Below, piece by piece: positions 3,166 to 31,365 of a stretch of 64,000 nt of DNA (position 1 is the stretch's first letter; every line of letters starts with the position of its first letter). A model generated the notes under the pieces. That model saw only the letters and a program-made list of their open reading frames with translations, was not told the origin of the DNA and searched no databases. A program made the position numbers and the translations under genes. The DNA comes from Escherichia coli (lineage in GTDB: Bacteria; Pseudomonadota; Gammaproteobacteria; Enterobacterales; Enterobacteriaceae): the NCBI RefSeq assembly GCF_048403405.1, contig NZ_CP183129.1; one strand, written 5' to 3'.

Positions 3166-3942
3166 TTATTCTTCAGTTTTTTCGCTTTCTGCTTCAGCGT
3201 CGTTTTCCTCTTCCCGATTTCGCCCTTTACCAACGTAAAAGCGTGAGAAGAAGACACCGATTTCAAACAGGCAGTACATCGGGATCGCCAACAGCGTTTG
3301 CGAGAAGACATCCGGCGGCGTCAGCAGCATCCCGACAACAAATGCACCAACCAGCACATACGGGCGTTTTTTGCGTAAGTCTTCTGGCGAGGTAATCCCC
3401 ATCCAGCACAGCAGCACTATTGCCACCGGCACTTCAAAGGAGACACCAAACGCCATAAACAGCGCCATAACGAAGCTTAAATAGCTGGCGATGTCGGTGG
3501 ATACCTGTACCCCTTCCGGCGCGGTATTGGCAAGGAAGCCAAATGCCAGCGGAAAGACCACAAAGTAGGCGAACGCCATGCCGATATAAAACAACAGAGA
3601 GCTGGAAACCAGCAGCGGCACCACCAGGCGACGTTCATGCTTATACAGCGCTGGGGCGATAAACGCCCACACCTGATAGAGAATCACCGGCGCTGACAGA
3701 ATCAGCGACACCATAAAGGTCAGCTTGATCGGCGTAAAGAACGGTGAGGCCACGTCGGTGGCGATCATCGTTGAACCTTGCGGCAACTGCTTGATCAATG
3801 GCGCGGATACCAGGTGATAGATGTCATTGGCGAAATAGACCAGACACAGGAATATCACGATCACCGCGATAATGCAGTTCAGCAGACGCTTACGCAGCTC
3901 AATCAGATGCGTGATAAGCGGTTGAGTATCTTCTACAGACAT
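3166..3942 (-). CDS. tatC: Twin-arginine translocase subunit TatC
   Basis: 258-aa polytopic membrane protein starting [20 protein letters not shown]; position in the tatABCD operon. Confidence 0.95.
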
Positions 3943-25339: not shown

Positions 25340-27601
25340 TTACCCCCGACGCAAATTCTGCGCCGCCTGCACCATGTTCGCCAGTGCCGCGCGAGTTTCT
25401 GGCCAGCCGCGCGTTTTCAGGCCACAGTCCGGGTTGACCCACAGACGCTCTGCCGGAATGCGTTTTGCCGCTTTCTTCAGCAAGGCTTCAATCCATTCCA
25501 CGCTCGGTACGTTTGGCGAGTGAATGTCATAGACGCCAGGACCGATTTCATTTGGATAATCAAACTCTTCAAACGACTCCAGCAACTCCATGTCGGAACG
25601 CGAGGTTTCGATGGTGATGACGTCTGCGTCCAGCGCCGCAATCGAATCCATGATGTCGTTGAACTCGCAGTAACACATGTGAGTGTGGATTTGTGTGTCA
25701 TCTTTCGCCACGGCGGCGTTGATACGGAAAGCCTCTACGCCCCACTGGAGATATGCATCCCAGTCGCTACGACGCAGCGGTAAACCTTCGCGCAGCGCCG
25801 GTTCATCAATCTGAATGATGCCAATTCCAGCGGCTTCCAGGTCCGCGACTTCATCACGCAGCGCCAGCGCAATTTGTTTGGCGATGGTTTCACGGCTGAC
25901 ATCTTCACGCGGGAACGACCAGCAGAGAATGGTCACTGGGCCAGTCAGCATCCCTTTCACCGGTTTATCAGTCAGCGATTGCGCATACTTCGCCCACTCC
26001 ACGGTAATCGGTGCCGGGCGGCTAACGTCACCAATAACAATCGGTGGCTTCACGCAGCGGGAACCGTAGCTCTGTACCCAACCGTTTTGCGTAAAGACAA
26101 AGCCATCCAGATGCTCGCCAAAGTATTCCACCATGTCATTACGCTCGGCCTCGCCATGTACCAGCACATCCAGTCCCAAACGTTCCTGCTCAACAATGGC
26201 CTGCTTGATATGTTCCGCAATGCCCGTGCGGTAGTTGTTAGCGTCGAGATTACCCTTTTTAAAATCCAGACGCAGGGTACGAATCTCCGTGGTTTGCGGG
26301 AAGGAACCAATCGTGGTGGTCGGCCACGCGGGCAGTTTAAAACGCGCACGCTGGGCTTCAGCACGCACTTCATAGACATTCGCACGCTGACTGTCCTGGG
26401 CGGTGATCGCCGCCAGACGCTTTTCTACTGCCGGATTATGAACACGAGTAGAGTGACGACGCGCCTGAATCGGAGCGCTCCACTCTGCCAGAGCAGCCGT
26501 GTCACCACTGTTCAGCGCATCGCGCAGCAGTGCCAGTTCATGACATTTTTGCAGGGCGAAGGCAAACCAGCTTTTCACTTCTGCATCAAGACGCGTTTCC
26601 ACGCTCAGGTCGATGGGGCTGTGCAGCAGTGAGCAGGAAGATGCCACCCACAAATCGCGTTTGCCGACAATGTCCTTAATTTGCGCATACTTCTCGGTAA
26701 GATCGGCGCGCCAGACGTTACGACCATTGATCAGACCCGCAGACAGTAGCCAGTCAGAAGGCAGACGCTTGTGCAGTTCAGCAACGTCATCTTTACCATG
26801 TACAAGGTCCACATGCAGCCCCTGAACAGGCAGCGCAGTAATCGTGTCGAGATTTGGCGTTACGCCTTCAAAATAGGTAGTCAGCAGCAGTTTCACCTGG
26901 CCCTGAAGCGCGTCGTAAGCGGGTTTGTATGCGTCCAGCCACGCCTGCGGTAGTTCCAGTACCAGTGCGGGTTCGTCGATCTGTACCCACTCAATGCCGC
27001 GTTTTGCCAGTTCTGCCAGTACTTGCTGATAAACCGGCAGAATGTCGTTTAGCAGGCTCAGGCGGTCAAACTGTTCACCTTTCACTTTCCCAAGCCATAG
27101 GTAGGTAACCGGCCCCAGCAGCACAGGTTTCACCTTGTGGCCCAGCGCCAGCGCCTCGTCCACTTCCTCCAGCAGCTGCGTCCAGGTCAGTTTGAACTGC
27201 TGGCCTTTAACGAACTCCGGCACCATGTAGTGATAGTTGGTGTTAAACCATTTGGTCATTTCCGCTGCCGCCGCAGGTTCGCCAGTCGGCGCACGTCCAC
27301 GACCAATACGGAACAGGGTGTCGATATCTACCGAACCATCTTTGTTCTGATGACGTGGCGGAACATTACCCAGCAGCAGACTGGTGGTCAGTACATGATC
27401 GTACCAGGCAAAATCGCCCACCGGCAGCAGGTCGATACCCGCCTGCTTTTGTTGATCCCAGTGACGGGCACGCAGTTCACGCCCTACTGCCAGCAGTTCT
27501 TCACGCGTGGAGTTCCCCGCCCAATAACTCTCTTGCGCTTTTTTCAGCTCGCGACGCAGGCCAACGCGAGGGAAACCGAGGGTGTGATTAAGAATTGTCA
27601 T
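25340..27601 (-). CDS. metE: Cobalamin-independent methionine synthase MetE
   Basis: 753-aa ORF starting [29 protein letters not shown]; canonical MetE length and sequence. Confidence 0.96.
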
Positions 27602-27718: not shown

Positions 27719-28672
27719 ATGATCGAAGTAAAACACCTGAAAACGCTACAAGCGTTGCGGAACTGCGGCTCGCTCGCAGCCGCTGCGGCGACGTTGCATC
27801 AGACGCAATCCGCCCTATCTCACCAGTTTAGCGATCTGGAACAACGCCTTGGCTTCCGGCTATTTGTGCGTAAGAGCCAGCCGCTTCGCTTTACACCGCA
27901 GGGAGAAATCCTGTTGCAACTGGCAAACCAGGTGCTGCCACAAATTAGCCAGGCACTGCAAGCCTGCAATGAACCGCAGCAGACGCGTCTGCGCATCGCC
28001 ATTGAGTGCCATAGCTGTATACAGTGGCTGACGCCCGCGTTAGAAAATTTCCATAAGAACTGGCCGCAGGTCGAGATGGACTTTAAATCGGGCGTGACGT
28101 TTGACCCGCAGCCTGCGTTGCAACAGGGCGAGCTGGATCTGGTGATGACGTCAGATATTCTGCCGCGCAGTGGCCTGCATTATTCGCCGATGTTCGACTA
28201 TGAAGTACGCCTGGTGTTAGCACCTGACCATCCATTGGCGGCAAAAACGCGTATTACACCGGAAGATCTCGCCAGCGAGACGCTGTTGATTTATCCGGTG
28301 CAGCGTAGCCGACTGGATGTCTGGCGGCATTTTCTTCAGCCGGCAGGCGTCAGCCCGTCACTGAAAAGCGTCGATAACACCTTATTGTTGATTCAGATGG
28401 TTGCCGCGCGGATGGGTATTGCCGCCCTGCCGCATTGGGTAGTAGAGAGTTTTGAGCGCCAGGGTCTGGTGGTGACCAAAACCCTGGGCGAAGGCTTGTG
28501 GAGCCGACTGTACGCCGCCGTGCGCGATGGCGAGCAGCGTCAGCCGATTACTGAAGCGTTTATTCGCTCAGCGCGCAATCACGCCTGCGATCATCTGCCG
28601 TTTGTGAAGAGCGCGGAGCGACCCACTTACGATGCACCCACAGTGAGGCCAGGATCACCAGCGCGCCTGTAA
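27719..28672 (+). CDS. metR: LysR-family regulator MetR
   Basis: 317-aa ORF starting [45 protein letters not shown], divergent from metE. Confidence 0.95.
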
Positions 28673-29459
28673 TGAACGTTGGCCAGTGCGGCTGTTGGTG
28701 CCAGATAGCCAGGTTTACCAGCAGCCCTGCCGGAACGTGCATATTATTCATAATACCCAGCGTTCCGGCGTCTACTTGGGTTGCGCCGTAGTTCCACATA
28801 AAGTAGCCAATCCCGGAAGCCACCACGCCAAGAAACACCAGAATGCCCCATTGCAACGTGGTTTGCGGCATTTTCTGCGCATTTCCCAGCAAGAACCATG
28901 CAATCACCGCCACCAGGAACGCGCCAAGATAGAACCACGCAAAGGCGTTATGCTGCGGCATCGGGCGAGTTTCCATCAGGCGTTTGTAACCCACCATGCC
29001 GATGGCAAATGTGATATTGGAGAGTTGCACCAGCAGCAAGCCAGTCCAGAAATGGTCGGTGACCTGATCATAGCGAATAATCCCGGCACCAATCACCGCC
29101 AGCAAGGCGCTAAAAGCATAGCCCCAGCGCAGACGGCGCTTACTCATGATGTCATAAATCAGCGTGATGTAGAGCGGCGTCAGTACGGTGAACAGCAGCA
29201 GTTCGGAGACCGTCAGGTAGAGATAGGCGCGGAAACTCAGCATATACATCACGCCGAGCTGCATCGCGCCCACCAGCATATACAGGCCGACCGTTTTCAG
29301 GCTATTGCCACGGGTACGCAGAAACGGCAGAAAAACGAGTGCCGCCAGGCCAACGCGCACCAGCACCGCAAAATAGCTATCGACGTGCCCCGCAAGGTAC
29401 TCGCCATAAAAGCTAAAGGAGAAGGCCCACAGAATCGTGGTGATGATAAGTAGCGCCAC
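28560..29459 (-). CDS. yigM: EamA/DMT-family transporter YigM
   Basis: 299-aa polytopic membrane protein convergent with metR; the 3' ends overlap by 113 bp. Confidence 0.85.
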
Positions 29460-29534: not shown

Positions 29535-30335
29535 TTACGATAAATAGAGCTTACGCAGATAATGCGGCACTGCGTCTTCGGCGTTAGTACCAATCACTTC
29601 CAGCTCTGGATGCAGATCTTTCAGCCGTTGGTGCGCACTGCCCATAATGCAGCCTTTCCCCGCCATCGACAGCATTTCGGCGTCGTTCATCCCGTCACCA
29701 AACGCAATACAATCCTTCAGGCTGTAGCCCAGTTTCTTCGCCACTGCTTCCAACGCATGGCCTTTCGACACGCCGCCCGCCATCACTTCCAGACAGGTTA
29801 AGGTAGAGAAACTAACGTTGACGCGATCGCCCCAGCGAGCGTTGATCGCCTGCTCCAGCGGCAGCAGTTGTTCATGGGAATCGCAGGTGAAGAACACTTT
29901 GCTGACGCCTTCCGGCTCCAGTAATCCCGGCTCATACAGCGCATATTTGAACACCACTTCTTTAAAAAAGCGCATCTCTTCCGGGCGATGGCGATTCATA
30001 AACCATTCGTCGTCGCGATAAACGTTAGTAATGATGTCCGGATTGTCGTTGACTACGCCAAACAGATCGCTGGCAATGTCGCGATCCAGGTTATGAGCAA
30101 AAATCAGATTGCCATCCAGATCGTGAACGCGCGCGCCATTGGAGGTAATCATGTAAGACTTAATCTCCAGATTATCGCGAATTTGCCCCACATCAACGTG
30201 GTGACGACCGGTCGCAAACACAAAGTTGATGCCGCGCGCGGTGAGCAGCTTCAGAGTTTCTTTGGCGTAAGGGGATAACGTATGGTCGGGAGAAAGTAAC
30301 GTGCCATCTAAATCAGACGCAACAACCTGGTACAT
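29535..30335 (-). CDS. yigL: HAD-family (Cof-type) sugar phosphatase YigL
   Basis: ORF open to 30461; canonical start MYQVVASDLDGTLL (HAD motif I) is 8 nt downstream of the pldB stop. Confidence 0.85.
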   Translation of the reverse strand: MYQVVASDLDGTLLSPDHTLSPYAKETLKLLTARGINFVFATGRHHVDVGQIRDNLEIKSYMITSNGARVHDLDGNLIFAHNLDRDIASDLFGVVNDNPDIITNVYRDDEWFMNRHRPEEMRFFKEVVFKYALYEPGLLEPEGVSKVFFTCDSHEQLLPLEQAINARWGDRVNVSFSTLTCLEVMAGGVSKGHALEAVAKKLGYSLKDCIAFGDGMNDAEMLSMAGKGCIMGSAHQRLKDLHPELEVIGTNAEDAVPHYLRKLYLS

Positions 30336-30342
30336 AAGAAAT

Positions 30343-31365
30343 TTAAACCTCTGTAGAGCGGTTTCCGCTGGGTGAGTTATGCCTGTTGAAAAAATCAACG
30401 ATGGCGTGGAGCGCGACTGAGCGCATTGCGTCCTTTTCAAAAAGGATCTCATGGTACGCACCTTTAATTACCAACGGCCGTCCACCTTCGACAGGATGGC
30501 CCGCGGCGGTGCGGAGTTCACAAAAACGGTCGTGCATGCGGTTATCCACCACGCGTTCCTCTTCAGCTTGTAAGAGAAGCGTTGGCGTGGCGTCATCACC
30601 CGCACCGGCTAACACCTGTTCGCCAGCCAGAATACTTTCGCGTACCCAATGGTAGGTCGGCCCACCGACGCGAATCGTTGGGTCATCAGCATAGAAGCGT
30701 AAGTTACGTCGATATCGCTGTCTGCTGTGGGTCAGTACGTTGATAGCAAACGGCAACGCGCGCCAGCGCCCGGTGCCTATTGCATAGCCATCGCGGAAAC
30801 GTGGATGCGCTTCGGCCCAGTTGAGGATCTGCCGTGCCATAAATGACGGCATACGAATCACGATCCCAAACATTGGCGCAGTTAGCGCAATGGCGTCACA
30901 TACACCTGGATGGCGTTGCAGAAATAATGTGGAGATCGCACCGCCCATCGAGTGCGCCAGTATATAGCGTTTACGCCACGGACCGGGCTGAACCTCCTGT
31001 TGCCAGAATGCCGCCAGATCATCAACATAATCATTAAAGCGATTAACATGCCCGAGATGCGGATCGGCTAACAGGCGACCGGAACGTCCCTGCCCGCGAT
31101 GGTCGATGATTAAGACATCAAACCCTAAATGGAACAGGTCGTAAGCCAGTTCCGCATATTTTACGTAGCTCTCAATACGCCCCGGGCAGATGACTACCAC
31201 CCGGTCATGGTGCTGCGCGCGAAAACGGACAAAGCGCACCGGAATGTCATCCACACCAGTAAATTCTGCTTCATCACGCTGACGCCAGAAATCAGTCAGC
31301 GGTCCCATGGTAAAAGCAGCAAACGCGTTTTCTCTTGTTTCCCAGTCTTTTTGCTGCTGAAACAT
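30343..31365 (-). CDS. pldB: Lysophospholipase L2 PldB
   Basis: 340-aa alpha/beta hydrolase (AHSMGG nucleophile elbow) in the conserved pldB-yigL arrangement. Confidence 0.9.
   Translation of the reverse strand: MFQQQKDWETRENAFAAFTMGPLTDFWRQRDEAEFTGVDDIPVRFVRFRAQHHDRVVVICPGRIESYVKYAELAYDLFHLGFDVLIIDHRGQGRSGRLLADPHLGHVNRFNDYVDDLAAFWQQEVQPGPWRKRYILAHSMGGAISTLFLQRHPGVCDAIALTAPMFGIVIRMPSFMARQILNWAEAHPRFRDGYAIGTGRWRALPFAINVLTHSRQRYRRNLRFYADDPTIRVGGPTYHWVRESILAGEQVLAGAGDDATPTLLLQAEEERVVDNRMHDRFCELRTAAGHPVEGGRPLVIKGAYHEILFEKDAMRSVALHAIVDFFNRHNSPSGNRSTEV

Follow-up and report, generated by a model that had tools for sequence, protein, structure and literature searches.

Long overlaps between bacterial genes were surveyed by Palleja et al. 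(2008; BMC Genomics, PMC2478687), who considered 54 of 968 overlaps of more than 60 bp possibly real, all of them convergent. Most long convergent overlaps were found to be conserved among very close species only (Palleja et al., 2008). The long convergent overlaps of Rogozin et al. (2002), to the extent that they are described in PMC2478687, lie tail to tail over more than 60 bp, involve well-characterised genes and have lengths consistent with those of orthologues. Convergent genes with 3'-overlapping transcripts include arfA-mscL, for which antisense cross-talk has been described (PMC10070815), and the collision-terminated pairs, in which, according to the abstract of the preprint, a stem-loop in the nascent RNA places the collisions between the gene boundaries (bioRxiv 10.1101/2022.10.23.513370). 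The overprinted Escherichia coli genes laoB, asa and htgA are whole new ORFs inside older genes, so that protein is translated from the antisense of a constrained gene.

In E. coli, yigM (bioP) "overlaps substantially" with metR, and deletion of metR also inactivates biotin transport (Cote et al., 2016; mBio, PMC5120140). The primers of that study leave only the last 6 metR codons in the metR deletion, and the boundary of the yigM deletion lies after the metR stop, sparing metR (Cote et al., 2016). When mapped here, the metR deletion removes BioP residues 270-299. Deletion of yigM leads to loss of high-affinity biotin uptake and makes the cells sensitive to a BioA inhibitor (literature including Cote et al., 2016). 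The overlap is already annotated in RefSeq and published and is therefore not new; added here are a site-by-site map of constraint, the interlock of the stop codons, the distribution in Enterobacterales and the lineages in which the genes are separated. The overlap opens no new question and holds no surprise for the specialist.

The metR-bioP pair is like the overlaps of Rogozin et al. (2002) in the features listed above. Judged as in Palleja et al. (2008), the two genes are well characterised, their lengths are consistent with orthologues, neither 3' end is extended by a frameshift or lost stop confined to one genome, and the overlap is conserved beyond very close species; unlike most cases in that survey, it spans at least three families. 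As in arfA-mscL and the collision-terminated pairs, the genes are convergent; their transcripts would be expected to overlap at the 3' ends, which would make antisense effects or collision physically possible. Unlike in the collision pairs, the coding regions themselves overlap and there is no stem-loop terminator in E. coli. As in laoB, asa and htgA, a stretch of each protein comes from the antisense of a constrained gene, but metR and bioP are two old, unrelated genes with C-terminal extensions only, and these extensions look largely non-functional.

The pair can serve as a textbook case of a long convergent overlap that persists with little dual coding, its stops locked by residues of the partner, and it also shows the escape routes from overlap, by inserted DNA or a terminator. 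Deletion, insertion or recoding at the 3' end of either gene also affects the other. The metR deletion of Cote et al. (2016) doubles as a biotin-transport mutant, which calls for caution in the design of knockouts and recoded genomes.

The metR-bioP locus and its two proteins

The window analysed is a stretch of 64,000 nucleotides from the E. coli contig NZ_CP183129.1. The metR CDS (27719..28672, + strand; ORF call and RefSeq) encodes a LysR-type activator of metE and metH of 317 aa, and the bioP (yigM) CDS (28560..29459, - strand; ORF call) starts with GTG and encodes an EamA/DMT biotin transporter of 299 aa. By ORF coordinates, the two share 28560..28672, 113 bp read on both strands. metE lies immediately upstream at 25340-27601 (-), divergent from metR, and this arrangement is the same in RefSeq and in every related locus inspected. 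RefSeq gives the same geometry for strain TUM14771, which is 100% identical over an 801-nt query around the site, and the geometry of K-12 MG1655 (bioP 4011076..4011975, metR 4011863..4012816) is identical to that of the window. Of the 5426 complete E. coli genomes, 5424 contain the locus as traced with the 801-nt query. The metR-bioP overlap is thus confirmed as real, convergent and conserved. The earlier note had named both genes and given the coordinates of their convergent overlap, its length of 113 bp and the protein lengths of 317 and 299 aa, all of which agree with the ORF calls, RefSeq and the family matches.

MetR matches Pfam HTH_1 at residues 5-63 and LysR_substrate at 86-288, and scores 741 bits against the NCBIfam equivalog NF011950 (cutoff 382), with coverage of 1-317 of 317. 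A structure match, PDB 5fo5, is the DNA-binding domain of E. coli MetR; PDB 4ab5, the effector domain of Neisseria meningitidis MetR, aligns to residues 87-296 of the E. coli protein, not beyond. An AlphaFold model of MetR was discarded for its mean pLDDT of 48, the alignment being shallow (29 sequences, at least 83% identical). Mean pairwise amino acid identity is 93% in residues 1-280 and 96% in 281-302 but only 57% in 303-317, which matches that of four-fold synonymous sites (58%); judged by these identities, the last 15 residues of MetR (303-317) change as fast as synonymous sites do. Up to A299/R301/P302, MetR shows little or no variation across Enterobacterales; beyond this point both sequence and length vary (307-318 aa).

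BioP matches Pfam EamA in two stretches and TIGR00950 with 310 bits (cutoff 230). Its AlphaFold model has ten helices (mean pLDDT 89, pTM 0.86), of which helix 10 comprises residues 259-285; pLDDT drops to 56 over residues 281-290 and 47 over 291-299, and the tail is predicted to be disordered. Mean pairwise identity falls from 87% in residues 1-262 to 83% in 263-284 and 69% in 285-299. Alignments with remote relatives stop near residues 270-285. Relatives of about 50% identity are 292-294 aa long and occur in other genomic contexts, where metR is not adjacent. Two BioP relatives, P0128 and P0130, have genes fragmented at the locus in their genomes and are uninformative.

Constraint and stop codons in the shared segment

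Codon positions 1 of the two genes face each other in the overlap, position 2 of metR faces position 3 of bioP, and position 3 of metR faces position 2 of bioP, so that a synonymous change in either gene always alters the second codon position of its partner. Constraint was measured as per-site entropy over 72-77 species, a site being called variable at entropy above 0.3. In the zone 28560..28612, where MetR F281-S298 is encoded opposite the BioP tail (~284-299) and the bioP stop, 13/17 sites at metR position 3 (bioP position 2) are variable and 2/17 at metR position 2. The zone 28626..28672 encodes BioP I263-K278 opposite the MetR tail T303-L317 and the metR stop; over 28626-28669 the variable sites are 11/15 at bioP position 3 (metR position 2) and 4/15 at bioP position 2. 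The difference between zones by class of variable site has p = 0.0025 (Fisher test), and the switch is sharp at about 28613-28625. On this pattern, 28560-28612 evolves as MetR, encoding the end of the effector-domain fold while the BioP tail drifts along, and 28626-28672 as transmembrane helix 10 of BioP, with the MetR tail taking whatever residues result.

The junction between the zones (28613..28625) encodes MetR A299-E300-R301-P302 and BioP W279-V280-A281-P282-R283, is constrained in both frames and is among the three most conserved 13-nt windows of the 1741-nt two-gene span. The wobble bases of MetR A299, R301 and P302, which are the second positions of BioP P282, V280 and W279, are invariant in 3/3 cases versus a baseline of 3% at four-fold sites. 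CGA and CCC are rarely used codons in E. coli. A weaker dual constraint extends from 28613 back to about 28608 (BioP S284). Reduced variation at all three positions of both frames, the mark of dual-frame purifying selection, was not seen outside about 28608/28613-28625, and true dual coding is limited to these ~13-18 nt, not 113. The claim of the earlier note that the overlap constrains both sequences consequently stands for ~13-18 nt; elsewhere the entropies indicate that one frame dominates and the tail in the other drifts, with second positions that vary at, or close to, the synonymous rate.

Some signals of constraint remain in the tails. The wobble entropy of bioP in 28626-28672 is not depressed (0.98 vs 1.03 elsewhere), whereas that of metR in 28560-28612 is 0.63 vs 0.92 elsewhere, about 30% lower and in the lowest 1.1% of comparable windows, and this holds for two-fold and four-fold classes alike. 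At the two metR wobble bases that specify E299 of BioP and its TAA stop, all 74 sequences agree. On this evidence, the BioP tail is not completely free of constraint. BioP V268 is GTG in 76/77 species; a change to GTT or GTC would leave the BioP residue as it is but make MetR 5 residues shorter, and the bias may reflect weak selection for MetR length. The simplest reading of these residual signals would be weak selection on the C-terminal residues of BioP or on the length of MetR.

The stop codon of each gene lies in codons for conserved residues of the other. The metR stop, TAA or TGA (28670..28672, +), is the complement of BioP codons I263 (ATY) and T264 (A..); T28670 and A28672 do not vary, 28671 carries A or G, and all variants keep both the BioP residue and the stop (72 species). 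The bioP stop, TAA (28560..28562, -), is the complement of MetR codons F281 (TTT) and I282 (ATT), and positions 28559-28566 (TTTATTCG) around it are invariant in 74/74 aligned sequences, those of Yersinia, Pectobacterium and Rahnella among them. A stop arises in this phase wherever the partner has an NTT, NTC or NCT codon followed by a codon that starts with A. Because the residues I263-T264 of BioP and F281-I282 of MetR are conserved, the stops cannot move, and the length of each protein is set by purifying selection on its partner.

Natural truncations occur at other codon pairs of the partner. MetR of Citrobacter gillenii (L031) has 312 aa and an overlap of 98 bp, its stop coming 15 nt sooner, in the codons for BioP V268-I269. 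BioP has 284 aa in the locus L063 (overlap 68 bp) and in P0075, where the stop comes 45 nt sooner, in the codons for MetR V296-K297. From the positions of these stops, the causal bases would be V268 = GTY and V296 = GTY before AAG, as expected by the stop rule. Truncated forms of BioP ending in WVAPHS or WVAPRSA stand for sequence clusters of 42 and 66 members, the 285-aa protein of Salmonella Gaminara included.

Distribution of the overlap in Enterobacterales

In Enterobacteriaceae, sampled at one genome per species, 80 loci were recovered, with BioP identity down to 81%. The overlap is present in 80/80 species and is exactly 113 bp, without indels, in 76/80, all of which have MetR of 317 aa and BioP of 299 aa. 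Besides C. gillenii and L063, the exceptions are L033 and L081, with MetR of 318 aa and an overlap of 116 bp. Beyond Enterobacteriaceae, the two genes share 113 bp in Yersinia, 116 bp in the relative L096, 98 bp in Dickeya and 95 bp in Pectobacterium and Rahnella, and BioP has 299 aa in all of these. Thus at least three families have it: Enterobacteriaceae, Yersiniaceae (Yersinia, Rahnella) and Pectobacteriaceae (Pectobacterium, Dickeya). By parsimony, and with a handful of genomes from outside Enterobacteriaceae, the overlap would be ancestral to the sampled members of these three families.

Stops in these antisense frames occur every ~16-35 codons, with a median open run of 25 codons. The lengths of the tails are within chance, and since chance alone yields open runs as long as these, the tails need no selective explanation; the conservation of the 113-bp geometry exceeds chance. 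The earlier note had proposed conservation of both C-termini as a check. Lengths of 317 and 299 aa are indeed kept where the genes overlap, but proteins are shorter in the lineages with separated genes and in the natural truncations. The extreme C-termini of MetR and BioP, though encoded, appear dispensable.

Transcript ends and explanations of the overlap

Intrinsic terminators after either E. coli stop were sought by a consensus scan and sliding RNAfold, and no hairpin with a T-run was found on either strand; a bidirectional intrinsic terminator between the stops, sought as a G+C-rich stem-loop with T- and A-runs on its flanks, was likewise not found in the E. coli window. With no terminator at the overlapping coding ends, each transcript would be expected to run at least 113 nt into the partner gene. 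The RNA 3' of both stops is richer in C than in G. A region of Rho-dependent termination on the bioP strand (-) has been published with its peak at K-12 4011704 (+), which corresponds to 28831 in the window by the conversion window = 29459 - (x - 4011076) (Adams et al., 2021; eLife, Supplementary file 2). Counts upstream and downstream of it are 98 and 21 without bicyclomycin, a five-fold drop, and 300 and 326 with it, giving a Rho score of 5.07 (p = 1.3e-12) at the coarse resolution of 800-nt windows; no Term-seq 3' ends are listed for K-12 4011700-4012299, and none for metR or bioP (Adams et al., 2021). Rho probably ends both transcripts, the published support being for the bioP strand only and the metR strand being judged from base composition. 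A candidate conserved hairpin at the bioP stop (28551-28571, loop TTTATT) was rejected, its pairing and covariation being no better than in column shuffles of 74 sequences.

The locus is probably an ancient tail-to-tail overlap of two unrelated functional genes, a frozen accident rather than 113 bases of dual coding. The conserved cores would abut, that of MetR reaching to R301-P302 and that of BioP to W279-S284, with ~13-18 nt in common. Past the junction, each frame would continue through the antisense of the constrained core of its partner to the first stop, and the outcome would be a 15-residue tail on MetR and one of ~15 residues on BioP, weakly constrained or unconstrained. Space for an intergenic terminator would be absent, and the transcripts would end inside the partner, presumably by Rho acting on untranslated C-rich RNA. 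Separation of the genes would need insertion or duplication of DNA, as in Serratia and Erwiniaceae.

That one gene really ends earlier, the overlap being an artefact of annotation or sequencing, could be argued from earlier reports. The MetR of Salmonella was reportedly first described as a protein of 276 aa; in two loci of Salmonella enterica (subsp. diarizonae and arizonae), MetR has 317 aa. Most annotated overlaps of more than 60 bp are misannotations (Palleja et al., 2008; PMC2478687). A convergent overlap is, however, set by stop codons and is independent of the choice of start; an earlier stop was looked for in the E. coli metR and bioP frames and found in neither. The same stops recur in thousands of E. 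coli genomes and in 76/80 species, and the MetR fold, by homology to 4ab5, reaches residue 296, which like BioP helix 10 is inside the overlap. This reading is effectively refuted, with next to no probability left to it. Dual coding of all 113 bp, with both C-terminal tails functional and selected, is very improbable. It would agree with the near-invariant length of both ORFs in Enterobacteriaceae, the low wobble variation in 28560-28612, the invariant TTT-ATT at the bioP stop and the preference for GTG at BioP V268, which avoids a premature MetR stop. Length invariance, however, follows from the conserved residues of the partner that fix the stops. The loss of BioP function in the metR deletion of Cote et al. 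(2016) might also be cited in favour of functional tails, but this deletion also removes half of transmembrane helix 10 and is therefore uninformative on the BioP tail alone. Against selected tails stand the synonymous rate of the MetR tail, the variation of the tails in sequence and length between families, the truncated natural BioP alleles in clusters of 42 and 66 and the predicted disorder of the BioP tail.

Selection of the overlap for coupling of expression, with polymerase collision or double-stranded RNA causing mutual repression of MetR and BioP, is unlikely. The lack of an intrinsic terminator at or shortly past the gene ends of E. coli would suit it, as would the extension of the bioP-strand transcript antisense to metR under Rho inhibition, and head-on collisions of polymerases are reported to contribute to termination at convergent E. 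coli pairs (bioRxiv 10.1101/2022.10.23.513370). The persistence of the arrangement across several families also fits, but is equally explained by the difficulty of separating interlocked cores. Biotin synthesis uses S-adenosylmethionine, which gives such coupling a conceivable logic. Protein-level constraint nevertheless accounts fully for the substitution pattern, conserved RNA structure was not found at the bioP stop, and no stable 3' ends are mapped in the region. The genes are, moreover, separated in Serratia, Mixta and Pantoea, in Serratia with a terminator between them, so that any coupling is dispensable. A literature search for reciprocal effects of metR and bioP on expression found none. 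The mutual antisense effects suggested in the earlier note are conjecture. A more specific form of the idea is a long shot: the terminator-less interlocked 3' ends might act as a conserved regulatory device in which convergent transcription, held in check by Rho and perhaps by RNase III cleavage of a duplex of at least 113 nt, makes MetR expression and biotin uptake antagonistic. If true, supply of methionine and S-adenosylmethionine would be linked to biotin acquisition, and both the weak constraint left on the BioP tail and the invariant TTTATTCG at the bioP stop would be signals at the RNA rather than the protein level.

The lineages with separated genes show the routes out of a frozen overlap. 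By parsimony, Serratia and Erwiniaceae would have separated the genes secondarily. In Serratia the gap is 32 bp, BioP has 287 aa (ending in WVAPKIVSK) and MetR 316 aa, and the gap contains a stem-loop followed by a T-run on the + strand (L091, 3458-3481). Mixta has a gap of 476 bp, with BioP of 282 aa (ending in HRRWVLR) and MetR of 307 aa. In Pantoea a DUF1456 gene lies between bioP and metR, and the proteins have 287 and 313 aa, respectively. A possible origin of the Serratia metR tail by duplication and decay of the sequence antisense to helix 10 in the bioP gene of Serratia itself was also considered, and was rejected since the score of the nucleotide local alignment was not above that of shuffles. 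At the protein level, the tail of Serratia MetR resembles the tails of overlapping relatives (RPSAGVASVKPLASQP vs RPNAGVPTVKPLSLPHPQ), a likeness that is suggestive only.

Sequence invariance at the bioP stop codon

The octamer TTTATTCG (window 28559–28566), which covers codons F281-I282-R283 of MetR together with E299 and the stop codon of bioP, shows no variation in 74 sequences belonging to three families, and its invariant positions include two wobble bases of metR. In Serratia, where metR and bioP do not overlap, the I282 codon is ATC. A hairpin was tested as the cause of the invariance of this octamer and was rejected.

On the bioP strand, a Rho-dependent termination region has been mapped to K-12 position 4011704 (+ strand), corresponding to about 28831 on the minus strand of the window, and was classified as internal to yigM (Adams et al., 2021). 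It lies approximately 270 nt upstream of the bioP stop codon, at a mapping resolution of 800 nt, and may reflect either premature arrest of much of the bioP transcription or simply termination close to the gene end.

Lineages with separated metR and bioP

In Serratia liquefaciens, metR and bioP are separated by a 32-bp gap containing a hairpin with a 10-bp stem (3458–3481 of locus L091), preceded by AAATAT and followed by GTTTATTT. With these flanks, the hairpin resembles an intrinsic terminator acting in both directions; it was called by the prediction tool on the + strand only. Additional DNA separates the two genes in Erwiniaceae, including a DUF1456 gene in Pantoea sp. B65 (3551–4027 of L095) and an 82-aa ORF in Mixta calida (3612–3860 of L093).

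Disrupted and irregular loci

In one of the 5424 E. coli genomes, strain NIPH17_0020 (L002), about 240 bp of non-aligning DNA takes the place of the entire overlap and of the 3′ ends of metR and bioP. The replacement spans about 1735–1985 of that locus, equivalent to about 28435–28870 of the window, and both genes are labelled pseudogenes by RefSeq.

In a Logan-assembled contig resembling Dickeya solani (556–1455 of L084), the BioP frame is shifted relative to that of E. coli over residues about 205–250 and is restored afterwards, owing either to a mistake in the assembly or to a frameshift compensated by a second one; because of these out-of-frame residues, the protein shows up as a cluster representative of 57% identity. 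BioP fragments of 58–77% identity were found in three other loci (L087, L088, and L089), in genomes where metR, metE, and adjoining genes are split into short ORFs; such gene breakage resembles that of degrading genomes, possibly of symbionts.

Other reading frames around bioP

The ORF listing contains a 255-aa ORF on the + strand (window 28686–29453), antisense to bioP across nearly all of its length. This antisense phase has just three stops over the length of bioP, and the ORF is probably a shadow ORF arising from codon bias. On the minus strand, the mechanically called yigL ORF (window 29535–30461) has a GTG start and encodes 308 aa, whereas the RefSeq annotation gives 801 nt (266 aa), which is an ordinary difference in start codon.
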